DNA of 55,543 bases from Nitrospirota bacterium (GCA_029858565.1 JAOUEV010000017.1:1-55543); one strand, 5' to 3'. Shown: positions 34,320 to 54,501, numbered from the stretch's first letter. A program made the numbers and translations. The notes: generated from the letters alone by a model not told the origin.

Positions 34320-34345
34320 ACCCCTCGCCGTTGCAGATAAAATGT

Positions 34346-34421: not shown

Positions 34422-34466
34422 AAAACAACAAATGGGTTGGCGTAAGCCAGCCCTTTTTTGTTTTTG
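34421..34466 (+). terminator. Intrinsic terminator after the tRNA (repeated at about 34605 and 52631)
   Basis: GGGTTGGC-GTAA-GCCAGCCC followed by T tracts. Confidence 0.8.
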
Positions 34467-34585
34467 ATCAAGTGGGGATCGAACGAGAGGGTCTGGGAGA
34501 GAAACTCTCCCAGGCTTCGGGGGTAACAGGCCGGATTCATCGGCCGCCATAGGGGGCTGGCCCCCTGTGGAAGCGAAGCGCGTAA

Positions 34586-34668
34586 GATCCCCCTCAGCTC
34601 CACCAAAAACAACAAATGGGTTGGCGTAAGCCAGCCCTTTTTTGTTTTTGAGCAAGTGGGGATCGAAC
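34586..34668 (+). repeat. Tandem copy of tRNA 3' end plus trailer (184-bp period)
   Basis: 83 bp matching 34402-34484 with one mismatch. Confidence 0.92.
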
Positions 34669-34690
34669 CAAAGGGTTATGGGGAAAGATT

Positions 34691-35065
34691 CTATCGCTTC
34701 TTCACATATTTCACGCCTTCAACATCTTTCAAGTCACTGTCCTGTGTCCAGATAACCGCGTCATGAATTCTGGCGGTTGCCACAATCACTGCATCCGCCA
34801 TAGGTAATTTTGTTTCATAGCCAATCTTCGCGGCAGTAACGGCGGTCCCGCTATCAAGGTCAATCACCTGTCCCTGCTGCATCAAAGCAACAGCCTGCAA
34901 TGCCGCATCCTCGCCTCTCTGCTGCAAAATCCGCTTGAATACCTCCAGAATGCAGAGCGTCGGGACAAGCAGATCATCGACGTCTTCAATGGCAGGAGCG
35001 AAGAAACCCGCATTCGGTCCATCGGCAAGATATTCGAGCCATCCACAGGAATCGACGAGGTTCAT
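34691..35065 (-). CDS. vapC: VapC-like PIN toxin
   Basis: NLVDSCGWLEY, LPMADAVI, WTQDSD. Confidence 0.9.
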   Translation of the reverse strand: MNLVDSCGWLEYLADGPNAGFFAPAIEDVDDLLVPTLCILEVFKRILQQRGEDAALQAVALMQQGQVIDLDSGTAVTAAKIGYETKLPMADAVIVATARIHDAVIWTQDSDLKDVEGVKYVKKR

Positions 35066-35268
35066 ACGCGGTCTTTCTCCCTGTTCACCGTGGTATCAAT
35101 CCCCTTCAGAAATCCGCGCATGGACTTCACTTTTTTCACCGGCACGAGCTCGATCCGGTTTGCGTAATTGATGACCTGCATCTTCTCTCCCGGCTTGATG
35201 CTCAGAGTCTCCCGAACATCACGCGGGATTACAACCTGGTACTTCGGGGAAACAGTGACGGTTTTCAT
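35062..35268 (-). CDS. AbrB/MazE-family antitoxin
   Basis: VSPKYQVVIPRDVRE..IKPG; GGAGG RBS; stop overlaps the toxin start. Confidence 0.9.
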   Translation of the reverse strand: MKTVTVSPKYQVVIPRDVRETLSIKPGEKMQVINYANRIELVPVKKVKSMRGFLKGIDTTVNREKDRV

Positions 35269-35298
35269 GGCGACCTCCATCGATAGTCTATGCGTAAT

Positions 35299-35327
35299 AC
35301 TATATCATCATCGATGCCCCCTGACAA
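35299..35327 (-). promoter_or_regulatory. Sigma70 promoter of the toxin-antitoxin operon
   Basis: TTGTCA-17-TATAGT; ATCGAT palindromes in the spacer and near the RBS may be operators. Confidence 0.65.
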
Positions 35328-35371
35328 GAGAAAATACATATCTGCCTCTCCTGTCATCACTGCGAGACAGA

Positions 35372-36070
35372 GGCGCATATCTCAAGAAACAGCGCGAGCT
35401 GAGCGACATGTCCCTGCGGGACGCGGGCGCAGCAGCCGGGCTTTCGCACGTCCACGTCAAGGAAATCGAGGACAGCGTCACCACCCCGTCGTTCGACAAG
35501 GTGATGCGGCTGGTAAAGGCCTACCATGCTGACCTGCAGGACTTCCTGAGGGCGACCGGCTACCTGCCGAAGAACACGGAGGTCGCGTCAATCGGCAAGA
35601 TGCGGAAGATCCCGGTCATTTCCTGGGTGGCTGCCGGCAGGTGGACCGAAACAGGCGAGATGTTCCTTGAGGAAGATGTAATCGAGTGGATCGAGACCGA
35701 CGTGAAGGGCGAGCACAACTTCGCGCTGCATGTGAAAGGCAATTCCATGGAGCCGGAGTTGAGCTCCCCTGAAGCAATTGGGCTCGTCTCTCAGGGTGAG
35801 TAAGCTTTTCCGTATCCGCTCGCCGCGCTCACTCCAGAGTTCAAGGAAGGCGAAACTCTCGTTATCAGCCCTACTGCGAAAGCGGAGAACGGCGACTACA
35901 TTATCGTGAAGAATGACGAGGAAGAGGCGACGTTCAAGCAGTATAAGAGATACGACAGTATGAAAATCCTCCACCCCCTCAATCCTCAGTATAATGACAT
36001 CGTCCTGAATAAGGATAAGGAATACCGGGTCGTCGGGGTGGTGATGGAGAAGAAGAAGAGGTATAAGTAA
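35372..36070 (+). pseudogene. XRE-HTH + S24 peptidase repressor (CI/LexA-like), interrupted by an 81-bp insert; native start unclear
   Basis: GAYLKKQRE..SLRD HTH, IPVISWVAAG cleavage loop, VKGNSMEP catalytic Ser; after an in-frame TAA the frame continues EFKEGE..EATFKQY..LHPLNPQY..RVVGVV. Confidence 0.85.
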
Positions 36071-36098
36071 GCCAGCTGTTCGTTGGTTACATTTTTTT

Positions 36099-37307
36099 TC
36101 ACATCAGCGTTACGTGAAAGTTCATCGGACGAAGCACATAGCCGGCGCTTCTCAGGGATGGCCTTTGCAGCGGAAGCACTTTCGGCGCCTTGCTGCTTGC
36201 CCGAAAAACGAGATAGATATGATAATTTGCCAAGCTTTCGGATTTGTCCAGCTCATTTGTTGAAATGTAAAAGCCTCCGCTCAGATTAGCAGCGCTTGTT
36301 GATTTCACTTCAATCGGTCGTTCACTTCCATCTACATCGAATGAGAGGATATCATAACCAGCACCGGCGTTTCTCTGAGATACGTGAACGATCCTTCTAG
36401 CGAGCTCTCTTTTACCCGCATCGATGAATCTCTTTTTCTCAAGTTCGAGGACGACTGCTTCTCCTCGGTCACCAATCCGCCTCAATTGTTTCTGACGCAT
36501 TTCGAAATCACCGGGACCCGTGTTGCCTCGTTCAGGAGTCGTGCGTTGCATGGGCGGCATCTCATCGATAAAAGCCGCCCCCTCTATGGCGTCACTGAGA
36601 ACCGGATAGGAGCCAGTCGCAGTAGCAGTAGCGGATGCGGCCTGATCGGGCGGATATCCAAACACGTGGTACAGCAACCGCATATATAAATAGATCGGTT
36701 GAGACGTTAGATCCGGCCATGTGGAACGGTATTCCATCAGGGCTTTCTGCATCGCAACTTCGGAATCAAAAGTTCCCGGAAGATTGAGCTCAGAAACGAA
36801 ATGCTGAAGATGACGTTTTGAGTAAATGGGCGCGAATCTATCGGGATAGTACAGGAAAAGGATCTTCCCTTTGAACATAGGGGATATCTTGTTTTCTTTG
36901 ATTGCGGCCATGTCATCTGTTTTCGCCGCATCCAGGAGCTGAACAAGAGCAGCCTTTATGTTATCGAAGGCCTGCGTATGATTGCCTCCCCAATGTGCTG
37001 CATGGCGGTATCTCTCTCTGTGGTCGCTCTTCGTTTTGCCGTAGTAGACGCCGAACTTAGCAGCCGTCGCACCCAGGATACGGCCGCATTTATCTAACTC
37101 GCGCTCTAATCTATAGCAAAACGATCGGTTGTCTCTTCCCCTCCCAATTACGAAGTCGTCTATCCGCATCTGCGCTATCTTACGCGGTGTATAATCGGAC
37201 ACAAACCGCCGTCGGCGCTCCTCAGTAGCTCTCCATTCTTCGCGGTCTCTCTCAACAAGAATCGGCACCTGCGCGTTGATCTGTTCTGCCATTTCTATGC
37301 GATTCAT
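36099..37307 (-). CDS. DUF3883 (NOV_C, PD-(D/E)xK) domain nuclease with distinct N-terminal domain
   Basis: IGDRGEAVVLELE, GAGYDILSF, IEVKST, FYISTNE. Confidence 0.85.
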   Translation of the reverse strand: MNRIEMAEQINAQVPILVERDREEWRATEERRRRFVSDYTPRKIAQMRIDDFVIGRGRDNRSFCYRLERELDKCGRILGATAAKFGVYYGKTKSDHRERYRHAAHWGGNHTQAFDNIKAALVQLLDAAKTDDMAAIKENKISPMFKGKILFLYYPDRFAPIYSKRHLQHFVSELNLPGTFDSEVAMQKALMEYRSTWPDLTSQPIYLYMRLLYHVFGYPPDQAASATATATGSYPVLSDAIEGAAFIDEMPPMQRTTPERGNTGPGDFEMRQKQLRRIGDRGEAVVLELEKKRFIDAGKRELARRIVHVSQRNAGAGYDILSFDVDGSERPIEVKSTSAANLSGGFYISTNELDKSESLANYHIYLVFRASSKAPKVLPLQRPSLRSAGYVLRPMNFHVTLM

Positions 37308-37356
37308 GATTAGTCCTTTTTGCTATGGGACATAAAGGAGTGTCTGTTTCTTTCGG

Positions 37357-40170
37357 CTATCCTACATGTATCCCGACTAACGCCGTCGTCACTCGCGCCC
37401 GTTTCTGGCGGTCCGGGATCCATTCCAGGATTACGCTCTTCATGGCTTCATCAAAACGCGCCTGAAGCCTGTTGACATCAAGACCTGCCAAAGACGGCGG
37501 GTTGGCAACACTCTCGGCCTTTGTCCATTCTATACGTTCGCATTCCTCTATATTCCCTTCCGGAACACCCCGCAAAGTGAGCACGCGCGAGGTTGCATGT
37601 CCTGGCTTATCTTCATATCGGACAAGATACCGGGCGTAGATTACTACTTCACTGCCGATCTGTGAAACCTCACCTGTAAAGCTCGGCTCAGACACCTCTT
37701 TTAGAAGAGCATCAATCAACGGATGCCCGATGCCGCCCAGCTCACTGCCGCGCTTTCTGAGAGACAGCGCACGATCAAAGCATACGTTCTCGTAGCGCGG
37801 CGCAAGATGATAGCGGCGCTGCAAGGATTCAGGAACATGGAATGTCCATAGTTCACCTTCCGGCATTGCTGCACCACCGAGACGAAGGATGGTGCTTCGC
37901 ACCCACTGACCCAACTCGTCCATCGTATGTCTGCCCTCGATGCGACGGTAATTTTCCAGGTTGAACTGGGTCAGATCCTGAGAAAGAGCGCTCAGTGCTT
38001 CCCGAGCCCGGTTTGCCTCCTTGATCATCTCAACCATGTCCTTCTCTGTCCTTCGGTAATCCCGATCAACCAGAGCGCGTTTGTACAATTCCTGATAATC
38101 GGGACGGCTTCCTAACAGACCGAGGATTTCGCTTTGAAAATCTTCCCGCACATGCCCTTGTTCATCCACCTTGCCGATGGACTCCGCAATCTCAGTTAAT
38201 TTATATTGAAGCATGTCATAGATACGTTCTTCTACTGTATCGTCGGCAAAAAGGTTGTACACCTGCACTGTCTCAAGCTGGCCGTAGCGATGAATGCGGC
38301 CGATGCGCTGCTCCACAGCCATGGGATTCCAAGGCAGGTCGTAATTGAACAGTATTCTACCGATCTGCAGGTTGATGCCTTCGCCTCCTGCTGACGTGCA
38401 AATCAGGAAGCGCGCACCGTTCTCTTTCCAAAAAGACTCCATCGCAGCGATCTTGTCTTCAAGCGGACCGCCTTTAATATTCGCGATAAAACCATGACCA
38501 AAAATGCGGCCCAATTCCTCGGAAAGAAATTCGAGCGTATCCCGATACTGCGTGAAAATAACAAACCGCTCAGCTGGATTGTCCCGTGATAGATCACTAA
38601 TCGCGCGCACTAGCGTTTCAAAGCGGCGGTCTGTGCCATCCGGCACATGGCTGATGAGATCGCGTACTTTCCGTATCTCATCCGGAATGTCAGTCTCAGC
38701 GAACACTCCCTCTTCGCCTTCTTCATCACCGTCGAGCGACCAGTCGGTCGTCTCTGCCTGTTCCTCTCGCTTCTGCAAACGCCGCCTGACGCGGCCAACA
38801 TAGGCCTCGGCATCACTGTTCGTTGCTGACGCTTCCCCGAGGATCGCCCGGGCCACGGCTTGCGTCTCATCCTGGAGGCGCATGATCTCTTCTGCAAAAG
38901 ATGCAGCTTTCGCGGGTGTCTGCGTACTGCGTCGTCGGGTTTCCAATTCAAGCTGTTTGCGTACGAGCAAGACCAAGAGCCGCCGCCGCAGTGCCTGGCG
39001 GATAGCTCGCGGACTGGAAGACATGATCTTCTGGAACGTCGCCATAACAAAGCCGATCGCCCGCTGCTGGCTTGTAGTCCTCTTTTGATCGATACCAGCT
39101 GCGCTGTAGCCTTCGCGCAGATACTCACTCAATTGATCGTAAAAATGCCGCTCGCGTGGGGCAAGCGAGAAACGTTCGGTATGCACCTGACGCCTGCGGA
39201 AGATCGGCTCGCCGGATGAATCAGTCACTTCGCGTTTTGTGCGCCGGATCATGACACGGTTCAAGAGACCCATGCGGTTATTAACCGCTTCCGGGTCCGC
39301 AAAGAGCTGGTCATCGAGAATCTGGATCAAAGACCAAAACTGAAACGCGTTGCCCTGATGAGGTGTAGCGGAAAGGAAGATAAGATCGCGCGCGTGGTTC
39401 CGCAAGGCCTCTGCAAGTTTGTAGTTTTGCGTGGTCACCGTCTTCTTGCCGCTCTTGGTGCGTGAAACATGGTGCGCCTCGTCGATGATCACTAGGTCCC
39501 ACGGAGCAGCCGCAAGCATCCGCTGCATACGGCGCGGCACTTTAAGCGTATCTATCGAAACGATGACCTGATGGTGACGTTCCCAGGCAGCAGAACCATG
39601 GTCCTGAAAATCCCGGCCCAAGATATCGAAATGCAGCCGGAAACAGCTATCGAGTTCCCTGCGCCAGTTCTCGACCAGGCCGGCAGGGGTCACGATCAGG
39701 ATGCGCTCTACGTCTTTACGCGCTATCAACTCGCGGATCAGCATCCCCGTTTCGATGGTCTTTCCAAGACCGACTTCATCAGCGATCAGCACTCGGCGGG
39801 GAGATTGATTGACCAGATCATGAACCATGAGGATCTGGTGCGGAAGCAAATCCACCCGGCTTGCGGAAAGTTCGCCGCCCGTGTTGGCAAAGCTCATATC
39901 AAGGGCCATCTGCTTGATACGATAGTCCCGGGGATCGTCAAAGCTCCCGGCAGCAAGTCTCTCCCACAAGTCAGCGGCCTTCTCCAGCCATTCAATCGGC
40001 ACGTTCTCGACTCGCTCGCCATCTGCTGTTTTAAAAAGCACCTTGGCCTGATAAACGCCTAACTCTTCGGAGACGCGTATTACCTCTCCGACACCCCACT
40101 CTGGATGGCTCTTCACGCGGACTTTGTCGTCCCGATTGATTGCTATATATGCTGTACTCGTCTCACTCAT
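37357..40170 (-). CDS. SNF2-family helicase (defence-associated)
   Basis: LLPHQ, ADEVGLGKT, DEAHH, LSATPHQG, GGEGINLQ, PWNPMAVEQRIGRIHRYGQ. Confidence 0.93.
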   Translation of the reverse strand: MSETSTAYIAINRDDKVRVKSHPEWGVGEVIRVSEELGVYQAKVLFKTADGERVENVPIEWLEKAADLWERLAAGSFDDPRDYRIKQMALDMSFANTGGELSASRVDLLPHQILMVHDLVNQSPRRVLIADEVGLGKTIETGMLIRELIARKDVERILIVTPAGLVENWRRELDSCFRLHFDILGRDFQDHGSAAWERHHQVIVSIDTLKVPRRMQRMLAAAPWDLVIIDEAHHVSRTKSGKKTVTTQNYKLAEALRNHARDLIFLSATPHQGNAFQFWSLIQILDDQLFADPEAVNNRMGLLNRVMIRRTKREVTDSSGEPIFRRRQVHTERFSLAPRERHFYDQLSEYLREGYSAAGIDQKRTTSQQRAIGFVMATFQKIMSSSPRAIRQALRRRLLVLLVRKQLELETRRRSTQTPAKAASFAEEIMRLQDETQAVARAILGEASATNSDAEAYVGRVRRRLQKREEQAETTDWSLDGDEEGEEGVFAETDIPDEIRKVRDLISHVPDGTDRRFETLVRAISDLSRDNPAERFVIFTQYRDTLEFLSEELGRIFGHGFIANIKGGPLEDKIAAMESFWKENGARFLICTSAGGEGINLQIGRILFNYDLPWNPMAVEQRIGRIHRYGQLETVQVYNLFADDTVEERIYDMLQYKLTEIAESIGKVDEQGHVREDFQSEILGLLGSRPDYQELYKRALVDRDYRRTEKDMVEMIKEANRAREALSALSQDLTQFNLENYRRIEGRHTMDELGQWVRSTILRLGGAAMPEGELWTFHVPESLQRRYHLAPRYENVCFDRALSLRKRGSELGGIGHPLIDALLKEVSEPSFTGEVSQIGSEVVIYARYLVRYEDKPGHATSRVLTLRGVPEGNIEECERIEWTKAESVANPPSLAGLDVNRLQARFDEAMKSVILEWIPDRQKRARVTTALVGIHVG

Positions 40171-40589
40171 GTCAAATTAAACCCCACAAGATAAAATTCA
40201 TTGCCTGCCCGATCCTGTTTGTGCGGTGAACCGAAGATGCGACGCAGGGAAATTCGTTCCAGTCCTACTTCGAACCAGAAGTCGTCGGCTTGATTCAATT
40301 TCCGTTTGAATACGATCTGTACATAGCCGCCCATTCGTTCCAGCTCATTTGCCCGCGATGCTAATAAATCGTGAATGTATGAAGAAACAGAATCCCGATT
40401 CTCCCCTGCTGCTATCAGCACATCTTCGACACCTTCGATGAGGATCTTATGGCCTCGCGGAAAGTGGAACGGCTCTTCCCGCAGTTCGCGGAGATAATCC
40501 AGAAAGCCCATCCGGACTTGATTCGGCTCAATGCCGCCTTCTCTTTCATCCTTCAGAAACTTAGTTTCGATAAGCAGGTATCCTGCCAT
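40167..40589 (-). CDS. Small conserved-looking protein, possibly inactive P-loop (BrxB/BrxF-like role)
   Basis: 140 aa, start overlaps the methylase stop (TGATG), stop overlaps the helicase start (ATGA); Walker-B-like ILIEGVED. Confidence 0.7.
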   Translation of the reverse strand: MAGYLLIETKFLKDEREGGIEPNQVRMGFLDYLRELREEPFHFPRGHKILIEGVEDVLIAAGENRDSVSSYIHDLLASRANELERMGGYVQIVFKRKLNQADDFWFEVGLERISLRRIFGSPHKQDRAGNEFYLVGFNLT

Positions 40590-43500
40590 CAGATCGCCCC
40601 TCCATGGCGCAACAGAGGCGCGCCCTCTATGACCCCGATCACCCGGTCGATTGCGCCTTCCCAATCCGACCGAAGCTGCCGTACATACCGCAAACCGGCA
40701 AGAATTTCAGAACGCCTGGCATCGAACCGTTCGAGCCACGGCAGAACACTCTCTCCTGCATCTGACAATGCGATAAGAGCATGCAGCAAGTCTACCAGCA
40801 GCACTTTGTTATTCGACGGCAATTCGCCCTCAAACAGCTCTTCCTGCGTTTCGCCGGTTTTCGCTCTCAGTATTGAGAGTACATCTTCCAGCCGTTCCCT
40901 TGGTTGTTTTACCTCGTAGGTACGACCGCGTCCGGTCCTCCCTTTCACTATCAGTCCTGCCTTTTTCAGATCCTCTGTGCTCACTTGAAGCGCCCGCGTA
41001 CTCTTGGTGATCTTGTCCATGCTCACTTCGCGGCTATGCCCGGCCAAAAGTCGCAGCCACGCATAAGTGAGAAAATCCACCTCTTCCAGTTCCGGCGGCA
41101 AAGGCCGCTCGCGCGTCACGAGTTGATCAACGATGCTGCTGATGTCCTGAAGCGCCTTATGGAGAGGATAAGTCATTCCTTCATGGTCCAGCACCTTGTC
41201 ATAGTGCGTGCTGTAAAGTTCCAGACACTTGCCGATGCAGATCAACCGCACATCCGGTTCCGGCAATGGTTTGTTCCCGTATCGCCCAGCCTCAATAGCC
41301 AAAAGTTCCGCCCGTGCAAGACGACGAACTTCCTGTCGAATGCCCGCCCATGATCGCGCAGTCGGGTCTTCCTTGCGCTTACGGCAGACGTGGATAAGGT
41401 CAAATGAAATATTTTCTTTATCCATCAAGTGGAGGGATGATTCTGCTTCGCTATGAACTGGGTAAACAGCGGCAATTTCAAAGCCAGTATCGCACAATGA
41501 CTGGAGCAACCCTTCCCACACAGTGCCTGCCTGGTCAGTGTGATGAAACGTAAAAATCAATAACCCGTCTTCCGGCAATTGGTCATGAACACGCTGAAAT
41601 ACAGTGGAAAGTCCCTTATAAAAATCTTCCCGGCTTTTTCCGCGTGTCCGATTTTCGACAACCTCTTCCGTTTTTGGGGTATATTCCGGCGCAAACCAAG
41701 AGTAATGGCCTTTAAGTGCCAGCCGCAGCCAAACATAAAAGAAGTCGGCGAGCTCCGAGTAATTGACGTTGCCAACGTAAGGCGGATCAGTAACAACAAT
41801 CGTGGGTGTTTCCGATGATACTTCTGCTGAATTCGCGCAATGCAACAAACGACTAGCATCAGTCAATTTATCGGTTTGAATTTTAACACGGTTCTCATCA
41901 TCAGTATTCGCTTTAAAGTCCCATCCTTCTGTTTGGTAATCAACACCGCCAACTACGAGCCCATATTCAGACAAAAAGGACCCAGCGGCGATACTCGGCA
42001 AACCAAAAACATTATTTTCCGCTGTCGTTATTTTTGTTTGGAAGTCGTGCCGTGCAAAAACGCCCTCAGCGGTCAGACTGCCTACTGCAGAGCGAGATAC
42101 ACGGTGGCGTGTAAATAGATTGTTAGCTTCCAGCGTATTTGAATACGCACACAACAGCATCTCCATCAGCTTCTCGTCCTTCTCAGCCATGATACCTTCA
42201 AGCAATGTTGAAAGCGCAAGAAGCTGGCGCGTCCCAAACATATCGTGCCATTGATTGTAGTGATGTTGAAGCAGTCGCGCAGTTTCTGCCCCATTTGGAA
42301 TAACACTCTTGGGATATGGCAGGCCTGCCTTGTTCTTCTCCCACAGGCGTTCTGCATTTTGTAAACGTGCCTGATCGGAGGCTGACCAGCGCTTAAAGAA
42401 CTTGCCATTTTTAGGAAGAAGCAATCCCTTTATTTCATCATTAGAAAGGGTACCTGATGCTTGTGACAAAACGCCGAACATCGTTTGCTGACTATCATCC
42501 ACCTCTTCTACCGGCAGGACATAGGCTTGAAGTGCATAAGGACGAACTGGCAATCTGCGCTCCTGCGGAAGCAGTCTAATGCTTTCAATGATCCTATCCT
42601 TGTTTCCACAGCGGCACTGGAAATAACCCTTCTCAGGAAGATTGCCTTTGCTCGGATCATAGTTATGATTGCACGCGGGGCAAGATAATTCACCCTCGGG
42701 TAGGGGGCCGCGCCACTGCCATACCGCTTCACAGGATGGGCAAAGCATCACAGTGATCTGAACTTTTTTCCGTGCCTTCTTCTTGTCCCACGGAACCCTT
42801 GCCTTGAAATTCTTCTCACAGTGAGGACAATCCAGCGTCACAAGGCTTTCATTTGATTTTTTCTTAGGCTTGGGGGGCTCGACCGTGTAAGTCCATGCCG
42901 TAGTAGGCCTTCCTTCGCCGCCGGACCCGCGAGAGCTGTTAACCATCATTGCCGGTTCAGCAATAAGTGAAGCAACATCCACTTCCCAATCAAAGGTCTT
43001 CTTGCATTCTGGACATTTTGTATCGCGATGATAGCGTACAGAAACCGTCTTTGCGGCTACGAAATAATCCTTGAACAATGGGACTTCTTTTTTACAGGTG
43101 GGATCTGTGCAAATCGCATGTTTGACCCAGAAGGTATAGATGACATCCGCATCAATGCCGGACGCTACCTCGGTCTTGTACAGATCAAGAAGCGTCTCGC
43201 GCATGGGCTTTCCGTTATTCCAAGCTACAGGTCGCGCTGCCAGTCTTTCGAAGGCTGCCTTGAGCGCATCGATTTCGACCGGTTCCACTTCTGTCTTGAC
43301 GATGAACCAGGCAACCGGATTCAGGTCTATTCCCACGACCTTACAGCCAAGCCGCAGCGCCTCCACCACAGTCGTACCGCCACCCATGAACGGATCGAGC
43401 ACCACCTTGCCCGTGGTATCCGGGTCTTTGTTGTGGTCCTTGTAGAACTCCGCCATGAGGTCAACCGGCGTTCCGTCTTCTTTGTATGCCGGTTTGAGCG

Positions 43501-45507: not shown

Positions 45508-45568
45508 TTTGATTCAACCTCCTTGCTGCCCGAGCATCTTCTTTCTGACCAGATACGATTCTGCGACA

Positions 45569-46432: not shown

Positions 46433-46445
46433 GCCGTTCCTTCTC

Positions 46446-46796: not shown

Positions 46797-46822
46797 CCCC
46801 TCACGCTTATTTTGATGCGTGT

Positions 46823-47662
46823 TTATTTTCCGGCTGCTTTTGCTGTTTTTTCTACTTTAGTTAGCAAGCGGATCGCGGCATGATACGTTGCTAAATAAAA
46901 ATGAAACATCCATGCATACCAGATGTTCTTGTCATAGTTTGATTTCTGCTTCGGATCGTGATGACGTATGGAGAAATTGTTCGCTATATCAAACAGCGCA
47001 GACTCATCCTTGCCGTCAAGCACTTTATCGAGGCCCTTGGTCTTCTTGAGCCACTCGAAGACATCCGCCATCTCCCGAACAGCTTCTTTCTTTTCTGTAA
47101 AAGACAAATGGCGATTTCGCCATTTTGTAATTGCATTTCTCACCTTGCTATCCACATTGGCTTCATCGTATGGGAGTATTTCAGCATCAAGTATGTGTTG
47201 TAGTCCTTGAGAACCAATAGCGAGGATAGTCCCGTCTTTCATCAGTTCGTATCCTGTCTTGTAATCACAAAGGAACGAGTTAGCCGTGTCTCTGAATTCT
47301 GAACGGCCGGCGTCGCTATCATAAGAACCGTAGTCTGAGTAGTTCCACCCCGAATCCGACACGAAGTCTTCCAATTTGCCCGGCTTAGACACGTGGTCAT
47401 AAAGAAACTCAAGCGCATCGAAGATATGATCCTCGGTAATTATTTCTTGCGCCCATTTCGTTATCGGAAAAGGCTGGAATGTCAATGCAATCGCAGCTTC
47501 GTGCTTTATAGAATCAGGGATGCCAGTTTCCGTAATCCCAGCCTTTTCTTTAAAATAGTCTTTGCTGCGAAAAAGCAGAAATAGATTCTGCATCTTCCAA
47601 TAAAGCTCTTCCAGAGTTAGGCTCGTCTGATTCTTTCTTGAACTATAATATCGTTTCGCCAT
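46823..47662 (-). CDS. AbiJ-like / HEPN-like hypothetical defence protein
   Basis: FDALEFLY, INSERT-free C-terminal helical region with ANNFSIRHH, reminiscent of AbiJ-related proteins. Confidence 0.5.
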   Translation of the reverse strand: MAKRYYSSRKNQTSLTLEELYWKMQNLFLLFRSKDYFKEKAGITETGIPDSIKHEAAIALTFQPFPITKWAQEIITEDHIFDALEFLYDHVSKPGKLEDFVSDSGWNYSDYGSYDSDAGRSEFRDTANSFLCDYKTGYELMKDGTILAIGSQGLQHILDAEILPYDEANVDSKVRNAITKWRNRHLSFTEKKEAVREMADVFEWLKKTKGLDKVLDGKDESALFDIANNFSIRHHDPKQKSNYDKNIWYAWMFHFYLATYHAAIRLLTKVEKTAKAAGK

Positions 47663-47679
47663 ACTGTGATTCCAGATTC

Positions 47680-47838
47680 CTATTGCACACTATATTCCAG
47701 ATCAGCTCTACCCGAATCCCAAGTATGAATGTAGGACAGTCCGATATGTGCTACTGACAGAATACAGACCAGCAATACGTGATACTTGTTCAGCCAGATT
47801 CTTGCATTTTGGACTACTCGCTTCATTTTATTGTCCAT
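47680..47838 (-). CDS. Small single-TM protein (52 aa) or gene fragment
   Basis: AGGAGG RBS before MDNKMKR, hydrophobic VLLVCILSVAHIGLSYI. Confidence 0.4.
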   Translation of the reverse strand: MDNKMKRVVQNARIWLNKYHVLLVCILSVAHIGLSYIHTWDSGRADLEYSVQ

Positions 47839-47954
47839 AGTCGTTCCCTCCTGATTGTTGGTATTCGGGACCGCCCTACAGACATACTCGGTAGCCACCA
47901 GGCCATGTAGTTCGGGAATCGAGTACAACTGATCTGTTTATCCTCCTCTAATAA

Positions 47955-48470
47955 TTACAATCGAAGGTCCGTCGGATAGTGGACCGCGATCTCTGTTACC
48001 CCATGAAATGCCTTATCGCTCGACACGAGCACATCCGCCTTCAGCCTCAGTGCTACCGCCAGCACTACTGCGTCATTCGTGAGAAAGCCGTACTTCTCCT
48101 GCATCTTGAACGCGGTCTTCGTGAGGTCTTCCAGTGTGCAGGCCGCGAACCCAAGTCCAAGGTCCACGAGTGCATTGACCTTTGCCCGGTAGAGGCTCAG
48201 GCCTTTGACGACCTCTGGTTTTGACGCAAGGCGCAGTGCCGGTTTTCCCTCCGCGACGAGGCCCTTCATCATTGCCTCTGCAAGCATCAACTTGTGAGTC
48301 AACTCCTGCCACACGGTCTGCGGCAGAATGCCTGACAACTCACCCTGGGCGCAGCGCCGGATAAATCTCTGGGCCTGGACCGAAGAGCCTTGCTCCGCAT
48401 AGAGCAACACATTCGTGTCGATCACGCAGACGCTGCCGCTCGGGATATCATCGAGATTTACAGATCCCAC
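47955..48470 (-). CDS. PIN-domain (VapC-like) toxin
   Basis: VIDTNVLLY, ELTHKLMLAE, FLTNDAV, SSDKAF. Confidence 0.88.
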   Translation of the reverse strand: MGSVNLDDIPSGSVCVIDTNVLLYAEQGSSVQAQRFIRRCAQGELSGILPQTVWQELTHKLMLAEAMMKGLVAEGKPALRLASKPEVVKGLSLYRAKVNALVDLGLGFAACTLEDLTKTAFKMQEKYGFLTNDAVVLAVALRLKADVLVSSDKAFHGVTEIAVHYPTDLRL

Positions 48471-48700
48471 GCATCCTCCTCAAGAACCGCCTTGAACTGC
48501 GCAGAGGTCAACTTCATCGGTCGATCGCAAAAGAGTTGATAAGCGGCATCTCGTTTTACCGGATCGGCGCCCTTGGGAGACAGATAGTTTTCGAGTGCTT
48601 CCTGGATCACATCGCTCAAGGGGCGCCCTTCATCTGCAGCTCGGCGTTTTGCCCGGCGCAGCACGTCTTCTTCCAACAGTGTTCCGACTTTCTGTTTCAT
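48458..48700 (-). CDS. Ribbon-helix-helix antitoxin
   Basis: KVGTLLEEDVLRRAKRRA..GRPLSDVIQEAL; overlaps the PIN gene. Confidence 0.82.
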   Translation of the reverse strand: MKQKVGTLLEEDVLRRAKRRAADEGRPLSDVIQEALENYLSPKGADPVKRDAAYQLFCDRPMKLTSAQFKAVLEEDAWDL

Positions 48701-48712
48701 ACGACACCTCCG

Positions 48713-49705
48713 TTAATTCACCGGTCCCAGCACGATCCACGGCGTGAGCATTTCCATGAGCGTCAATGCACCGTGCCGATAGACGGACTGCGCGCCCGGC
48801 CCTTGTATCCTGTTGTGCCCTCGTCCTGCGATCACCGCCAGCCGCATGGCAGGATCGACCCACAGCCCATCACCTGCCTTTGGCAGCTGTTCGGTTGGTC
48901 CGAAAAAACGATAGCGCTTTCCTTCCAGAGCCCGGTCTACGTCTTTCAAACCGGGATCGCTCAAGCCGGGGCCAAGAAATATATATCCATGGTCGCTCGT
49001 TACGAGTACTTTTCGATCCGGCGGCACCGCCTGGACCGTGCGCTTCCATGCCTGCTCCAGCCCGTCCCAAATGCCGTCGAACATCGACTCATCGGTTGCG
49101 GTGCTGTCGGTGTAGCGCTGGTCCGGAAACCGGGACCAGAGAAGCATTGACTCGTCGCCGTCTCTGATCGTGTGATGATCGCTGGTCTGGCCAAAGTAGT
49201 AAAACCGGATATTCCTTTGCTTCAATTCTCCACGGCCGGTGAGCTGCGAGGGACCAATATCCTTCGGCAGGCCAAGGCCGAGACGCTCGGATATGAAATA
49301 TTCGGTCTCGCTCGGCACAGCAGCGCGGCTGCACCCGCTTTCCAGAACAGCGCGCCGGGAGTCCTTAGCCAGGGCGATTAGCCTCGGCATCTCCCGAAGC
49401 GAACAGCCGTCCAATATCACGACAGCGCTTTTCTGGTTGCGCCCGAAGAAGGAGGCGACCGTCCTTTCCGCTGACGGCGGCGCAGTCAGCTCAGCAAAAA
49501 GCGATGAAGCCGAGCTTCGTAAAGCATTTTCCCTCTCATTCACCAGTACTTCACCGCGCCGCAGATAGTCCTTAGGCGAGTTGCCCGATGCGGCAAACGC
49601 GTCCTGGGACCAAACTTCATTAAGCAGCCAGTTTTCAAGTCCCGACAGACGCGGGCCAGGCTGCGTGAGGCGCTCAATGAGGGCGCGATCCAGCGCGGCT
49701 TTCAT
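48713..49705 (-). CDS. Stand-alone PglZ-like alkaline-phosphatase-superfamily protein
   Basis: VILDGCSLRE, VPSET, VTSDHGY, HGALTLMEMLTPW. Confidence 0.78.
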   Translation of the reverse strand: MKAALDRALIERLTQPGPRLSGLENWLLNEVWSQDAFAASGNSPKDYLRRGEVLVNERENALRSSASSLFAELTAPPSAERTVASFFGRNQKSAVVILDGCSLREMPRLIALAKDSRRAVLESGCSRAAVPSETEYFISERLGLGLPKDIGPSQLTGRGELKQRNIRFYYFGQTSDHHTIRDGDESMLLWSRFPDQRYTDSTATDESMFDGIWDGLEQAWKRTVQAVPPDRKVLVTSDHGYIFLGPGLSDPGLKDVDRALEGKRYRFFGPTEQLPKAGDGLWVDPAMRLAVIAGRGHNRIQGPGAQSVYRHGALTLMEMLTPWIVLGPVN

Positions 49706-49707
49706 TT

Positions 49708-52320
49708 TTATGCACCCTCCCGGTTTCTGCGGCCTTCATTCTGAAGCTCAACGCTGAAACGCGCCATGTAACTTGCCCCCGACAGGTTGGGAAGTTTTTC
49801 ACAATGCTGTTCCAATCCTGCCTTGGTCATCGGTCCAGGCACCATGATATCGAGTTGCACCCCTACATCACCGGACCCTGAAAGCGCGCCGCGATACGCG
49901 GCAGGCAGACTGGACAGGTCCTGGCCTTTATAATCCGCAAAAATGGTGAAACGCACTGTTCGGACGATCGGATCGTCCATATCAGTGAGCCGAGCGGCGG
50001 TCTGCTGACGAAGCTCGCCAAGACTGCGACAGGACGGAGTGCTTCTCTCTTCAACCGTGACCGCGGGAGTGGATGGCGGCTGTTCTCCGGGTTCCACGTC
50101 CGATTCTGCTGGCTGATCCGTGGTCGTAGCAGGTGTAGTACCGGGCTGTGACGGGCGCTCGGGCCTCTCAGCCTGTGTCTGCCAGGGTGTGCTGACCACT
50201 GCCTGATTCAGTTCAGAATCCGTAAGCGATACACGTTCACCGCAGAAATTCCCTCTCGGATGCTGTAAACCAAGAACAGGATTTCGATCCGCTGCAAGAG
50301 AACGGAGAATATCCGTTACCACGGTTACAGTAAGCGGAACAGGATAGCCTAAAGAGTTCCGATAGGCACGCTCGATCTGCTCTACCCGCTGTCCGAAGAA
50401 GACCGAAAGATTTCTCCGGAGATGTTCTTCGATCAACGAAGGCGGAAAGACCTGAGAGCGAAGATAGGTAAGCACTTCCTCCTTGCTGCCGGCCTGACCC
50501 AGATTTTCTTCCTCGAACTGCGTTTGGGAAACCTGATCGCCCCAGCGCTCGATCCTGATGTACAACAATCCCGCTGACTTTAACGTGCGTTGGATCTGCT
50601 GCACCTGCGCCCGCTCGATCTGTTCGAACTTCGTTCGGCGTTCAGCGTTAGAAGATGATGCGGCAAGCAACCGCGCAGCCTTGAGGCGCTTGGCAAGCGC
50701 CAGCAGGTCGGGATTTGTAAGATGATCCACTCTCGGGTCGCGCGGCTCAAGCAGGAGCACCTGGTTCCTGAGCTCAAGCCCCTGATAGAGAGCGAACCGT
50801 TCAGCCTGTGACAAGCGGCGAGGCGCTAAGACATATCGCTGACCGTGCCTGGAGAAGCCCTGAAGCGCTAGCTTTGTTTCTTCCAGATCGCGGTAAATGG
50901 CCGCCTGATGATTCTCCCGAAATACCTCCTGCAGCCAAAGTTGAATGACCTGCTCGCGCGCTGTGTCGTCACTGTGCCGCATAGCGTCGAGCTCGACCTT
51001 GGCGTATTCATTTTCCACTAGATCGAAAAGGAAACGGCCTTCGCGTTCGTGGAAATAGGTCCCATATCTTCTGAACGCCTCGAGACCGGCATGATACTGA
51101 TTCGGATCATCGCCGGGCTTGACAACATGCCGCACAAGCTCATCGGTCGTCATGCCGACAGCGCGACCGCCCGGAACCAGGCTCGCCAGCAGTACCGCAG
51201 ATGCAATAGCTTCCGCATACGGCTGTGCGGCAAGATCACGGTAATTGCCGGCAGCGGGATTGATCAGCGATCCGCCGGGGTCGAGATCAGAGAGACGGTC
51301 CGCGCAAACCGGATCGGTCACGCGACAATTGGATGCGGTCATCAAATAGGAACCTTCGGGAGTCGCGTCCAGCATGGCGCCGAGCAGGCCTAATGCGCTT
51401 CGTGTGCCTTGAAATCCGCCACTTTCCGTTATACGCTCAAAGACCAGTTCTATCAGATCGGGGAGGAACGGGAAGGACTCCTCCATACGACCGACGTAGC
51501 CATCGGGCACTTCCATCCCAAAGCGACGCCATGTGTTGATGTATGATTGGATAAGCGAACGTGCAGACTCCTTGTCATAGCTATCGGCGTTCTTAAACAG
51601 CCGGTGCCGAACAATGGATGCCCGATCCTGAGGTTTGCGGAAATGTAATTCTATTCTCTGCGTCCGCTTGAGCGTGGAACCTGGCTCCTTGTTGCCGTCG
51701 TAAACAGCAGCGAAGAGAGTCAAATGACTCCCCTCACGTCCTGCCTCCTCGCTCAGCATCTGGAGGAACGCTATATTCTGACTTCGCTTGGTCGAATCGG
51801 GTATAATATCAATGCCCCGTTCCAACTCATCGAGTATAAGAACCAGGTGGCAGTCCTTAATGGCAGCCCGGAAATCATCGAGGTCAGGTGCCCGCTCTGC
51901 GCTCCACTTGGCCTTGAGCCGCTGACCAATCAGCATCCAAAGCGCATCGCTCGGCATGGATTGATCGGTAAATTTATGGACGATGACTTCGGGATTCTTC
52001 GGTGGGGACCAGTCGTAACCGGCCTTCGCGGTCCAGGCTTTTGCTTCGGCAAGGCTCGCGAAGAGATGATAGCCTAAGAGAAGAGTATGAGATTTCCCGA
52101 GACCCTTGACCGCTTGGGCTAGGACTGTCCCCGGACCAGCCCCCTCTTTGAATCTCCTGCTGAGTCCCTTGAGAACCTTATGGAGGTCCTCGGAAAGATA
52201 CGTCAGCTCGAAGAACCGTTTGGCACTGCGCTCAAGACTGTCCGCAGGACCGGACCTAAGACGTTCGAGGTCGATAACACCATCTAGAGATTCTGTTGAT
52301 TCATAGCGTCGCTCTATCAT
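49708..52320 (-). CDS. DUF499-type AAA+ ATPase (BrxC-related)
   Basis: KGLGKSH Walker A, LILDE Walker B, IVRHRLF, SFPFLP, FQGTR; start re-called at ATG 52320. Confidence 0.82.
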   Translation of the reverse strand: MIERRYESTESLDGVIDLERLRSGPADSLERSAKRFFELTYLSEDLHKVLKGLSRRFKEGAGPGTVLAQAVKGLGKSHTLLLGYHLFASLAEAKAWTAKAGYDWSPPKNPEVIVHKFTDQSMPSDALWMLIGQRLKAKWSAERAPDLDDFRAAIKDCHLVLILDELERGIDIIPDSTKRSQNIAFLQMLSEEAGREGSHLTLFAAVYDGNKEPGSTLKRTQRIELHFRKPQDRASIVRHRLFKNADSYDKESARSLIQSYINTWRRFGMEVPDGYVGRMEESFPFLPDLIELVFERITESGGFQGTRSALGLLGAMLDATPEGSYLMTASNCRVTDPVCADRLSDLDPGGSLINPAAGNYRDLAAQPYAEAIASAVLLASLVPGGRAVGMTTDELVRHVVKPGDDPNQYHAGLEAFRRYGTYFHEREGRFLFDLVENEYAKVELDAMRHSDDTAREQVIQLWLQEVFRENHQAAIYRDLEETKLALQGFSRHGQRYVLAPRRLSQAERFALYQGLELRNQVLLLEPRDPRVDHLTNPDLLALAKRLKAARLLAASSSNAERRTKFEQIERAQVQQIQRTLKSAGLLYIRIERWGDQVSQTQFEEENLGQAGSKEEVLTYLRSQVFPPSLIEEHLRRNLSVFFGQRVEQIERAYRNSLGYPVPLTVTVVTDILRSLAADRNPVLGLQHPRGNFCGERVSLTDSELNQAVVSTPWQTQAERPERPSQPGTTPATTTDQPAESDVEPGEQPPSTPAVTVEERSTPSCRSLGELRQQTAARLTDMDDPIVRTVRFTIFADYKGQDLSSLPAAYRGALSGSGDVGVQLDIMVPGPMTKAGLEQHCEKLPNLSGASYMARFSVELQNEGRRNREGA

Positions 52321-52327
52321 GACTGGT

Positions 52328-52356
52328 AGAATAGCACAGAATTCTTGAAGTGTCAA
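52328..52356 (-). promoter_or_regulatory. Sigma70 promoter of the defence operon (probably leaderless)
   Basis: TTGACA-17-TATTCT with TG extension; ATG 7 nt downstream, no SD. Confidence 0.72.
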
Positions 52357-52439
52357 GAAAAATTATGCACGCAGACGGTATCGCTGGGACATTCAGGAGG
52401 GAATAATACAGAGGGTCTTGGGCTCACCCAGTTACTTAT

Positions 52440-52612
52440 TGTGCTAAAATTGTGCTAAAACGTATCCGAACAGGCATAATCATCGTAATAGCCGTAATCA
52501 CCGTAAGGTCACAAACTCCTTGATTCACTGGCAAAAACGGGAAACCAGGTGATAACTCAAGGATTGTGATTTTCAGCCCTGCCCTACTGGCCGTCTTGGG
52601 GTCAGGGGTTCG
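52440..52612 (+). repeat. attR-like end, copy 1 (arm-type sites plus tRNA 3' half)
   Basis: ~173 bp repeated at 54200-54372; opens with TGTGCTAAAA-T-TGTGCTAAAA. Confidence 0.88.
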
Positions 52613-52814
52613 ATACCCCTCAGCTCCACCAAAAACAACAAATGGGTTGGCGTAAGCCAGCCCGTTTTTGTTTTTGATCAAGTGGGGATCGAACGAGAGG
52701 GTCTGCGATTAGGGGACGTTGATACGTGAGCTGCATTTATCTCTAAGAACCAACTTCTTCGAGCCTAACCCGGGAATCGCGAGCAGGCCAGACTTCAGAA
52801 TTAATATTCTCTTC

Positions 52815-52925
52815 CGAATATTAGACAGTGAGATGAAAGAGGAGCTTGCGCGGATGGAGAAGGATTTGCAGCTTGGCGGTGGACCCTACTATCACTCACG
52901 AGATGAGCTGCATGAGCGTAACTGA
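52815..52925 (+). pseudogene. Possible antitoxin C-terminal remnant
   Basis: ...EELARMEKDLQLGGGPYYHSRDELHERN; the RDELHER ending is typical of small antitoxins; no toxin follows. Confidence 0.35.
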
Positions 52926-52949
52926 TAAAAGCATCGTCACATCCATCTT

Positions 52950-54122
52950 CTAAACGAGCGCGGAAAGAAACTTCCCCGCGGAAACGATCCTTGCCCCTTT
53001 TTCAATCTTATCCACTCCGCTCTTCTTCACCACCTGATAGACGAACGGGATCGAGAGCCTCTCTTTGAAATAGGGGATATGCGGGGATAGTGTTGCATCG
53101 TTGAGTTTTACTTCGACCGCGAACCAGGGCCTGCCGCCTATGGTCACAAGAAAATCGACTTCACGCTTATCAACATCCCGCAGATAATAGAGCTCCGCCT
53201 TGTGTCCTTCGTAATCAACAAGAAAGTGAACGTATTTCAAAAGATGGGAAGCTATAAGGTTCTCGAAGCGCGCGGCCTCGTCCTCCACTTCCGACCAGTC
53301 CCATAAATAGAGTTTGGGCTCCTTTTTCAGCGAACGGATCTTTTTCGCGGTAAACGGATATATTCGGAAGTGATAGTAAAAGGTCTCCAGAATGTCCATC
53401 CAGTGCGACACCGCGCGGAAGCTGACCTCGAGGTCTTCCCGCATGGCGTTGACCGACAGCAGCGAACCGACTTTCGACGGCAGAATATCGCTCAGGAGCT
53501 TCATGTTGCCGATGTCCCTTATGGCCTCAATGTCCTGAATATCCTCGCGGAACATTCTCTCCGTTTTTTCGTTATGCCATCGCCGAAGCAGCCGCGTATT
53601 CTGCTTCAGGAATGGTTCGGGAAACCCCCCGAAAGCATCAAGCGTGTCCAGTGCGCTCTGATGGCTGCCCTTCCCGATCGGCAATTCCTTCTGCAATGAC
53701 GACACATAGGCAATCCGCTCAACCTCCGCCAGCGTGAAGGGATGGAGACGGTAATAATGATACCTGCCTTGCAGCGAATCGCCCCCGCGCCGATAGAGAT
53801 CGAGCCGGGCGCTGCCGGTCACCAGGAATTTATAGGTTTCCTTCAGTTTGTCGTATTCGCCTTTGACAAGACCCTTCCACTTCCGGTATTTGTGTATCTC
53901 GTCGAGGATAAGAAGCTCCGTATCCCCCGGCCATGAAGAAGCGGTAATGGCCTTCCGGTCCGTCCGGTTGTCCCAGTTGAAATAGGCGTGATTGCTGAAA
54001 TGCGTCGCCACGAAGTTTCGGCAGAGGGTCGTCTTTCCGACCTGGCGCGGGCCGCCGACAAATACCATCTTTTCCCGCAAGTCTTCCACAATGAACGGCG
54101 TCAAATACCGGTCTTTTTGCAT
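52950..54122 (-). CDS. AAA_14 + DUF4143 ATPase
   Basis: GPRQVGKTT, LDEIHK, VTGSAR, DSLQGR, GGFPEP, KEPKLYLWD, REVDF..EVK. Confidence 0.92.
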   Translation of the reverse strand: MQKDRYLTPFIVEDLREKMVFVGGPRQVGKTTLCRNFVATHFSNHAYFNWDNRTDRKAITASSWPGDTELLILDEIHKYRKWKGLVKGEYDKLKETYKFLVTGSARLDLYRRGGDSLQGRYHYYRLHPFTLAEVERIAYVSSLQKELPIGKGSHQSALDTLDAFGGFPEPFLKQNTRLLRRWHNEKTERMFREDIQDIEAIRDIGNMKLLSDILPSKVGSLLSVNAMREDLEVSFRAVSHWMDILETFYYHFRIYPFTAKKIRSLKKEPKLYLWDWSEVEDEAARFENLIASHLLKYVHFLVDYEGHKAELYYLRDVDKREVDFLVTIGGRPWFAVEVKLNDATLSPHIPYFKERLSIPFVYQVVKKSGVDKIEKGARIVSAGKFLSALV

Positions 54123-54199
54123 GTCAGTACTATACATTATTTTTTTGCCTGAAAGCAAATATTTAAGCGTATATTTTTGCCTTCGGGTTATGAATCCAC

Positions 54200-54496
54200 T
54201 GTGCTAAAATTGTGCTAAAACCTGTCCAAACAGGCATAATCATCGTAATAGACGCAATCATCGTAATGTCACAAACCCCTTGATTCACCGGTAAAAACGG
54301 GAAACCAGGCGATAACTCAAGGATTGTGATTTTCAGCCCTGCCCTACTGGCAGTCTTGGGGTCAGGGGTTCGGCTTGCCGAACCAAGGGAGTTTGAGGGA
54401 AGGACTTCCCTCATGTTTTGGGGGAGTACACGAGGGGGCTGGCCCTTTCGTGAAGCGAGCATGCGAGCGCGCGAGATTCCCCCTTCAGCTCCACCA
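54200..54496 (+). repeat. attR-like end, copy 2; tRNA 3' half interrupted in the T-loop by a 103-nt insert
   Basis: Matches 52440-52612; tRNA sequence stops at GTTCG (54372) and resumes ATTCCCCCTTCAGCTCCACCA (54476-54496). Confidence 0.88.
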
Positions 54497-54501
54497 AAAA
54501 C

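Follow-up and report, generated by a model that had tools for sequence, protein, structure and literature searches.

A structured repeat unit behind a tRNA-Ala gene

The window analysed here, a 55,543-nucleotide (nt) stretch of DNA from a Nitrospirota bacterium (GCA_029858565.1 JAOUEV010000017.1:1-55543), carries an intact transfer RNA (tRNA) gene, tRNA-Ala(GGC), which is followed on the same strand by a structured element of about 100 nt. An initial annotation, made from the sequence alone, had described two diverged full copies and two truncated starts of this element and had read it as a family that targets the tRNA T-loop. We find that this element forms the unchanging core of a repeat unit of the RtT kind, a unit that lies behind a tRNA gene and ends in a copy of the 3′ end of that tRNA, and that it is neither a tRNA intron nor a transposon with its own enzyme. 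Below, the core is called the module, the copies in the window are E1, E2, E4 and E5, and R1 denotes a covariance model built from 31 related copies of the element. Counted from the first nucleotide of the window, the region behind the tRNA-Ala gene is laid out as follows.

34291..34319, plus strand: promoter-like site of the tRNA-Ala gene (TTGACA, 17-nt spacer, TACATT; 10/12 matches)
34346..34421, plus strand: tRNA-Ala(GGC), intact (ARAGORN; Rfam tRNA 61 bits)
34398..34484, plus strand: long imperfect palindrome (T-loop/tRNA 3′ end, terminator and inverted copy)
34434-34453, plus strand: stem of the first terminator behind tRNA-Ala
34474-34484, plus strand: inverted copy GGGGATCGAAC, 11 nt, of the tRNA T-loop and T-stem 3′ side
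34485..34586, plus strand: module E1, three-hairpin subtype, ~100 nt (R1 99.9 bits over 34466-34606), with hairpin 1 at 34493-34513, an extra hairpin at 34529-34545, hairpin 2 at 34547-34570 and then the GAAGCGAAGCGCG box
34587..34605, plus strand: second tRNA-Ala 3′ end copy, T-loop A58 to CCA, 19 nt (repeat families D1 and D3)
34618-34637, plus strand: second terminator copy, the same as the first, with the inverted flank copied again after it
34650..34728, plus strand: E2, a decayed or truncated unit (R1 15.8 bits, E 0.027; nhmmer E 0.014)

ARAGORN made a single, uninterrupted tRNA call across the whole window, and besides the site at 34291-34319 no promoter-like site was found in 34250-34760. 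The second full copy, E4, lies beyond a defence island (described in the last section), next to a fragment of a tRNA gene.

54347-54372, plus strand: tRNA 3′-half fragment ending at the T-loop GGTTCG, directly after the second island-end copy
54367..54384, plus strand: perfect 18-nt palindrome GGTTCGGCTTGCCGAACC, joining the tRNA fragment to E4
54379..54475, plus strand: module E4, two-hairpin subtype with a GCATGCG insert (nhmmer 1.6e-30), with hairpin 1 at 54394-54413, hairpin 2 at 54429-54452 and the box at 54453-54475
54476-54496, plus strand: tRNA 3′ end copy ATTCCCCCTTCAGCTCCACCA
54512-54529: two-way terminator, terminator-like on both strands
54540..54662, plus strand: E5, a decayed full-length unit, 37% GC, with a decayed tRNA-end copy

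Both full copies were scored by R1 (E1 as above; the intact E4 at 107.5 bits over 54365-54497) with the hairpins named in the initial annotation in place, and E1 folded far better than its shuffled sequences (z-score −3.8; 0/200). As had also been noted, each full copy gives way to renewed tRNA sequence, at 34587 (ATCCCCC) and at 54476 (ATTCCCCC). The two truncated starts fared differently. That at 34664 is indeed element sequence, belonging to the decayed or truncated E2, which abuts the 3′ end of a PIN gene (34691-35065, minus strand), whereas that at 52690 is not a separate copy and corresponds to the last ~19 nt of a 122-nt direct repeat that bounds the island. A further copy had been overlooked: the decayed E5 matches R1 at 34.1 bits (E 3.6e-7) over model positions 1-125.

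Units copy the 3′ end of their cognate tRNA

Across the loci examined we distinguished 53 units with a common order. A copy of the cognate tRNA 3′ end, running from inside the T-loop to CCA, is followed by a trailer with an intrinsic terminator, then by an inverted copy of the first 8-16 nt of the same tRNA end, and finally by the module, which is ~95-115 nt long and comprises two or three hairpins as well as the conserved GAAGCGAAGCGCG box. An array built in this order is therefore a series of alternating direct and inverted copies of one tRNA segment, and these copies are linked alternately by two turnarounds, the terminator loop and the module.

A same-strand tRNA of one of six anticodon types was present upstream, within the flank examined, for 40 of the 53 units (Ala-GGC 20, Ala-CGC 6, Leu-TAA 6, Leu-CAA 6, Val-GAC 1 and Ser-CGA 1). 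When the unit end was compared with the last 16 nt of that tRNA, all 16 positions agreed in 30/40 and 15 of 16 in 4 more; the other 6 units are truncated or decayed. The remaining 13/53 units, which have no tRNA, are cut by the flank or contig or lie behind tRNA fragments at island ends. The first unit lies 25-60 nt behind its tRNA and is always co-oriented with it. These results bear out the suggestion of a non-coding structured family tied to tRNA 3′ ends. A coding role was rejected, since on reading the alignment indels and optional inserts break any frame.

The left flank of the module reads as the reverse complement of the first nucleotides of the tRNA-end copy, and it covaries with the tRNA, with double changes in 6/10 closing-stem pairs. 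In agreement, the inverted flank of a Parcubacteria unit reproduces a T-loop variant, and in a unit behind a tRNA-Arg(TCT) gene, where the copy begins at the variable loop, the inverted flank mirrors that start. The CGAAC at the beginning of each copy had been taken as a motif that pairs with the T-loop in order to target it. Instead, CGAAC belongs to a longer stretch that repeats the cognate T-loop and T-stem in inverted orientation, and it changes along with T-loop changes. Nor is the T-loop a fixed starting point, as the divergent tRNA-Arg(TCT) unit, which belongs to the same genome as the window, begins at the variable loop.

Two unusual units were seen among these loci. The tRNA-Arg(TCT) unit (contig C14, 128008-128268) sits inside a seven-tRNA cluster, has a copied tRNA part of 32 nt and is without the GAAGCGAAGCGCG box. 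At L034 and L043 (G015:C133), a tRNA with an Ala-type body and acceptor carries a normal unit; this tRNA is called tRNA-Val(GAC) because its anticodon is GAC instead of GGC.

The direct copy, terminator and inverted copy together form a long palindrome. Folded as DNA, that of the window (34396-34486) reaches −27.4 kcal/mol (z-score −6.9), and long palindromes were likewise found at a Patescibacteria locus (z-score −7.0) and at E. coli proK (z-score −4.5), with 0/200 shuffles as stable in each case. In three element-free relatives (G005, G033 and G035), the tRNA and its terminator are followed by other DNA with no inverted copy. The inverted flank thus arrives with the module and does not belong to the tRNA trailer.

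At E4, this arrangement is altered. Its perfect 18-nt left-junction palindrome leads us to read the junction as what is left after the usual palindrome of tRNA end, terminator and inverted copy has collapsed within a dead tRNA fragment. The same junction recurs in a locus of another genus (L046), and other genomes show different collapses at the same place.

As a separate observation, record 9 of RNA run X3 (window 34390-34422) is a 94-nt contig with two copies of a tRNA-Ala end (~30 nt) lying 31 nt apart, and it may be a short tRNA-linked repeat of another organism.

Distribution and conserved fold of the family

BLAST searches with E1 or E4 gave matches in 22-23 of the 36 genomes from the same taxonomic family. 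Among 24 genomes outside that family there were one or two weak matches per query; those in G039 and G060, identified by coordinates, are 21-25 nt long and are not units. Remnants are present in two genomes that had seemed empty. The genome from which the window derives has clear units at the window locus only, together with the divergent unit behind tRNA-Arg(TCT) on another contig. A pattern scan of genome contigs also places the family in Nitrospirota: it returned 92 stretches, ~35 of them estimated as chance, and 27 of the 80 loci given to R1 scored, all but 3 from Nitrospirota. Two Patescibacteria loci, behind tRNA-Ser and tRNA-Met, share the layout and have modules that R1 scores at 36 and 29 bits.

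Some pattern-scan matches were discarded. One from Verrucomicrobiales lay inside a LysR-like gene and was dropped, and five on viral contigs, all scoring ≤21 bits with R1 and with no tRNA nearby, were judged to be chance; one of these, when read, fell within an open reading frame (ORF). In phage records, blastn gave no match to the element. A literature search around RtT found no paper describing the Nitrospirota family.

The 31-copy alignment yields four helices with standard pairs in 90.5% of pair cells, compared with 84.3% after column shuffling (0/500 shuffles reach the observed value) and 39-60% when partners are slid. Changes on both sides were found in 18/37 pairs. The earlier observation that the stems keep pairing despite sequence change is thus confirmed by covariation, as is the presence of G·U pairs on the plus strand. 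Such pairs are frequent (for example, 28/31 copies at columns 32/62), and because so many pairs are G·U, we assign the fold to the plus, or tRNA-sense, strand.

Whether the loop of hairpin 2 follows the anticodon of the host tRNA had been raised as a question. The loop varies (CTGG, CAGG, CCGG or TTTG) regardless of the tRNA, and this free variation rules out that it tracks either the anticodon or the acceptor. Therefore, the likeness of GGCTGGC to the anticodon region is coincidence. At gathering thresholds, an Rfam scan of the window returned the tRNA only. A permuted transfer-messenger RNA row (31.8 bits) was rejected, as it reflects only the tRNA end and the GGGGCUG in the hairpin-2 loop.

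Movement between tRNA genes and outward decay

A tree was built from 42 full modules over 81 columns; W_E4 and partial units were excluded by the full-length filter, and the resolution of the tree is low. It requires 13 changes of tRNA label, where the minimum is 4 and shuffled labels gave a mean of 19.7 (0/200 shuffles as low). Units behind Ala-GGC, Leu-CAA and Leu-TAA, E1 among them, group in one clade with 96/95 support, and units within one array sometimes have different module subtypes and terminators. Judged by these sequence comparisons, modules have moved between tRNA genes and both flanks were re-matched to the new tRNA. Mobility had been suggested in the initial annotation and is supported by the module tree, as is the non-autonomous nature of the element by the lack of any enzyme gene linked to the units. 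Since both flanks are re-made at each move, a target-copying mechanism would seem to be involved rather than slow co-adaptation.

In all eight arrays compared (the window, L016, L020, L021, L024, L030, L048 and L106), the inner unit scored at least as high as the outer one. Units of the Ala-CGC clade are near-identical across genera (branch lengths 0-0.014) and the DNA beyond them differs.

Comparison with the RtT repeats of E. coli

The repeats at tyrT of E. coli were reportedly described as '178-bp x 3.14' by Egan and Landy in 1978 and by Bosl and Kersten in 1991. In the K-12 annotation, rttR and tpr lie behind tyrV, rttR being annotated as a small RNA, and in a control search the Rfam RtT model (RF00391) finds 16 places in E. 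coli K-12. We read four K-12 loci that the annotation confirms as tRNA loci: tyrTV, proK, serX and the lysT-valT cluster. As in Nitrospirota, the E. coli units lie directly behind or between same-strand tRNA genes, and their ends are the last 18-20 nt of the cognate tRNA, starting within the T-loop. Upstream, the cognate T-arm is repeated in inverted orientation (GGGGAAGGAT for Tyr, GAGGAT for Pro and GGGGGGAT for Ser); hairpins come next, and then an GCGAAGCG-type box, which closes with GAGT just ahead of the tRNA end. A terminator often precedes the units, which form tandem arrays. In contrast to the Nitrospirota units, those of E. coli add a direct copy of the T-stem 5′ side beside the insert, and the hairpin sequences of the two groups are unlike.

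No named family had been recognised for the element. Its layout is that of the E. coli RtT (rttR) repeats, with the unit behind a same-strand tRNA and ending in a copy of the 3′ end of that tRNA, though the Rfam RtT model gives it no score. The window element did not reach the RF00391 gathering score of 45 bits; Rfam scans of 34300-34760 and 54300-54640 gave no RtT row at E-values up to 10; and over the whole genome RF00391 found nothing at the window and one 14.7-bit match elsewhere. In the opposite direction, R1 with standard filters had no match on the whole K-12 chromosome, and with filters off it gave only 9-11 bits at the tyrT locus (E 0.02-0.07). As RF00391 and R1 do not detect each other's members, we do not file the element under RF00391: it shares with RtT only the layout and a short motif, which fall short of establishing homology. 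According to a preprint, rtT RNA is linked to the processing of the tyrT transcript and perhaps to the stringent response, and its mode of action is given as unknown (10.1101/2024.07.17.603846).

Similarity to presumed single-strand origins of small plasmids

When E4 was compared with plasmids by blastn, a stretch of 37 nt matched at 89% (E 2e-3) in 50 small plasmids from lactic acid bacteria. The corresponding hairpin of pCL2.1 is located in non-coding sequence upstream of the rep operon. Beside it stands a second, larger hairpin, whose base is RS_B-like and whose loop is CS-6-like by the motifs given in PMC4598088. This plasmid module is present in 321 records (pCL2.1 and 320 others). Positions 20-109 of R1, which span its entire constant part, align colinearly to pCL2.1 at 18.2 bits, at a locus that was picked from the BLAST match. 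A hidden Markov model (HMM) made from 7 plasmid copies alone gave 53 matches in the 296-kb set of loci, with E-values down to 5.7e-5, and all of them fall on units and on the correct strand. Within the alignment to the plasmids, the AAGCG/AGCGC box alone matches the CS-6-like stretch. By these matches, which hold in both directions of search, hairpin 1 and its flanks resemble a conserved hairpin in the presumed single-strand (lagging-strand) origin (sso) region of small Firmicutes plasmids, a lead that we rate as suggestive.

The module and the sso of rolling-circle plasmids (ssoA and ssoW) are alike in being strand-specific, folded and non-coding, at ~100-200 nt, and the module has G·U-rich covarying helices on the plus strand. 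The plasmids differ in having no tRNA-end flanks. Two papers describe sso as read on single-stranded DNA by host RNA polymerase or a primosome, which primes there, and as orientation-dependent folded single strands and recombination hotspots (PMC5703833, PMC8860593). An sso has also been reported in an integrative conjugative element (PMC4595007).

Within the plasmids themselves, the hairpin (L182, pCL2.1 401-437; L185-L188) covaries between Lactococcus and Enterococcus plasmids. In the Enterococcus plasmids it is followed by a T-run and may also serve as a terminator.

A proposed single-stranded cassette and alternative explanations

We tentatively read the unit as a cassette at the level of DNA, with a module that would act while single-stranded and flanks that would be made by a fold-back or strand-switch event, an explanation to which we give slightly less than an even chance. 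Under this proposal, units would be DNA cassettes rather than genes for a working RNA. New units would be added on the 3′ side of the tRNA gene, which would leave the tRNA whole, and older units would be pushed outward and then decay. In each module, one flank would correspond to one strand of the target segment and the other flank to the opposite strand of that segment; this is the geometry expected of a fold-back or strand-switch on single-stranded DNA, and one that a cut-and-paste transposase or an integrase would not yield. The module would be the part under selection for single-strand structure, and general host replication or transcription machinery may read it on single-stranded DNA, which would explain the absence of a dedicated gene travelling with it. 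Host machinery is suggested by the likeness of hairpin 1 to the presumed sso hairpin of the plasmids. Between tRNA-Ala and E1 there is a canonical terminator and no promoter-like site, which argues against plain co-transcription, and a terminator precedes every Nitrospirota unit that we read.

Several observations weigh against a DNA cassette. Covariation and G·U pairs fit an RNA equally well, and the near-identity of the Ala-CGC units fits a host function, such as that of an RNA, as well as it fits recent spread. A stable rtT RNA has reportedly been found in E. coli, and the units of the E. coli lysT cluster, which have same-strand tRNA genes on either side, are probably transcribed. The similarity to plasmids extends over a short stretch (~37-80 nt) of an unannotated region presumed to be an sso. 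The plasmid HMM, when run over the 3.9-Mb genome of the window, ranks E4 first, yet at an E-value of 0.16. The RS_B and CS-6 motifs as printed (PMC4598088) are absent as such from the 31-copy alignment. Finally, neither a single-stranded intermediate nor an enzyme nor an insertion event was observed. The data show the layout, the tracking of the tRNA, the covariation and the movement, and we infer the single-strand mechanism and the part played by host machinery.

The main rival is that each unit encodes a small structured RNA, made by read-through from the tRNA promoter and cut out by tRNA-processing enzymes. The closing stem and CCA tail would protect this RNA, which could serve the host as a sponge, decoy or regulator. 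Although we think it unlikely, much of the evidence is consistent with it: the structure is strand-specific, covarying and on the tRNA-sense strand; the unit is always co-oriented with its tRNA, the first at the short distance given above; a tRNA-like 3′ end followed by a terminator is gene-like; conservation at the same locus across genera is high; and rttR is an annotated small RNA for which a preprint gives a role (10.1101/2024.07.17.603846). However, the terminator before every Nitrospirota unit read and the lack of a promoter-like site argue against such a gene, E4 is intact although there is neither a working tRNA gene nor a promoter upstream of it, outer units decay, and Rfam has no match. 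An RNA gene would also leave unexplained why the inverted flank is re-made for each tRNA and arrives jointly with the module. In RNA libraries, contigs of four runs cover the tRNA only (34336-34425) and come from other organisms, with shares ≤0.14, and they favour neither side.

Returning to the single-stranded cassette, a more specific version of it strikes us as doubtful. Here, the modules of RtT-like units would be single-strand initiation signals related to plasmid sso, and the units would be replication products, either fold-back or rolling copies of a small dumbbell-shaped single strand. In this dumbbell, the tRNA end and terminator would make up the stem, with the terminator tip as one loop and the module as the other.

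It is improbable that the units are scars of integrase-driven elements that integrated in the tRNA T-loop and lost their body, with the module as an arm of the attachment (att) site. The T-loop is a classic crossover place of tRNA-targeting integrases, and the duplicated tRNA end does begin there. Moreover, the locus is an island hotspot, where repeats of tRNA fragments flank both the 18.2-kb defence island and a second, small segment, and the same island end occurs in other genera. Nevertheless, a body or integrase was found in 0/53 distinct units, units of 167-184 nt have no cargo, and a T-stem-like half-site is missing from the duplex DNA left of the junction. For the islands at this locus, the crossover runs from the anticodon loop onward and is not at the T-loop boundary of the unit. 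Covariation with G·U pairs is unexpected for duplex binding sites, and the inverted flank is again left unexplained.

Still less probable is a PATE, a miniature element of the IS200/IS605 type, mobilised in single-stranded form by a Y1 (HUH) transposase and inserted 3′ of TTCG in T-loops. The subterminal hairpins, the strand specificity and the lack of a target duplication at E4 would suit such an element, as would the position of the E4 module after GGTTCG, with an internal CGAACC complementary to that target. Y1 genes are common in these genomes, and one lies 69 nt from a unit in G008. But typical units are preceded by a terminator and the inverted flank, not by TTCG, and the genome of the window has a single unit locus, unlike a spreading PATE. 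Nor is a linked HUH gene, which the initial annotation had proposed to look for, supported, since Y1 transposase genes do not track the element: Y1 (PF01797) is present in 31/36 genomes of the taxonomic family, including 11/13 without an element match, and was not found in the element-bearing G004, G016 and G023. The Y1 gene in G008 is of the IS200 type and lies downstream of a tRNA-Ala unit (L032, G008:C1:629261-629813); its proximity may be chance, given that G008 has 33 such Y1 matches.

Lastly, an intron or intervening sequence that sits in the tRNA T-loop and is removed from the transcript, as the initial annotation had read E4 because the tRNA at 54347-54496 halts at GGTTCG and resumes at ATTCCCC around the module, can be dismissed almost entirely: E4 sits in a dead tRNA 3′-half fragment that has no 5′ half and lies beside an island end, its junction is a collapsed palindrome with different collapses elsewhere, each of the 40 units for which the flank includes a tRNA follows that tRNA, which is intact, rather than interrupting it, and no Rfam intron family matches.

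Other mobile systems use folded single strands. In integron attC and CTX phage attP(+) sites, inverted half-sites on one strand pair with each other and mimic a duplex target. By analogy, the units may resemble these sites in having a structured loop between half-sites and in forming cassette-like arrays that grow at one fixed site. They differ in that they have no linked tyrosine recombinase, no conserved R-box-type motif and no gene.

Repeats that copy the tRNA tail behind E. coli tRNA genes have been known for decades and have, to our knowledge, no accepted origin or function. To these, our analysis adds a large Nitrospirota family that shows covariation and has close Patescibacteria relatives, evidence for movement between tRNA genes, and a simple rule, namely that the left flank mirrors wherever the copied tRNA end begins and comes with the module. 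It also provides a testable lead to plasmid single-strand origins. If this lead is true, host replication machinery acting on single-stranded DNA would be indicated as the driver, and if the units are related to sso, the 1978 E. coli tyrT repeats and their counterparts would share a replication-dependent, recombinase-free mechanism. Should the plasmid lead fail, the family remains a well-defined set for asking whether the units are RNAs.

The defence island at the tRNA-Ala locus

The interval between the two groups of units is occupied by the following features.

34691..52439, minus strand: cargo of the 18.2-kb island (Pfam, PADLOC)
36099-37307, minus strand: PD-T4-1
37357-40170, 40589-43675 and 49708-52356, minus strand: Hma-like HmaA/HmaB/HmaC (helicase/methylase/ATPase)
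43672-45507, minus strand: AriAB-like fusion
52440..52708, plus strand: island end followed by a tRNA 3′ half (repeats D1, 97%, and D2), consisting of the island end at 52440-52586, the tRNA 3′ half from the anticodon loop at 52587-52631, and a remainder with a terminator, the inverted flank and the beginning of a module (~16 nt, to 52705)
52950..54158, minus strand: AAA_14/DUF4143 ATPase (PDC-S01; Pfam; PADLOC 5.4e-49)
54200..54372, plus strand: second island-end copy and tRNA 3′-half fragment (repeat D2 at 93%)

The 122-nt direct repeat (34377-34498 and 52587-52708, 97%) marks both ends of the island, whose further cargo includes two PIN proteins and a helix-turn-helix (HTH)/S24 repressor. 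Among the 16 ORFs that were scanned with Pfam, none has a recombinase domain or encodes an integrase, and the combination of repeats with an integrase that would mark an integrase-type att site was not found at the 18.2-kb island.

Beyond the island, the PDC-S01 ATPase gene stands alone between two island-end copies, an arrangement like that of a one-gene cassette. The island-end repeat (52440-52612 and 54200-54372) is 173 nt long, is 93% identical between its two copies and contains short direct repeats (AATCATCGTAA twice). The repeat continues into the 3′ half of a tRNA-Ala, from the anticodon loop onward. This island end also lies beside tRNA-Ala fragments in five other genomes (G005, G007, G021, G025 and G033), and this recurrence indicates that one island family uses tRNA-Ala across genera.

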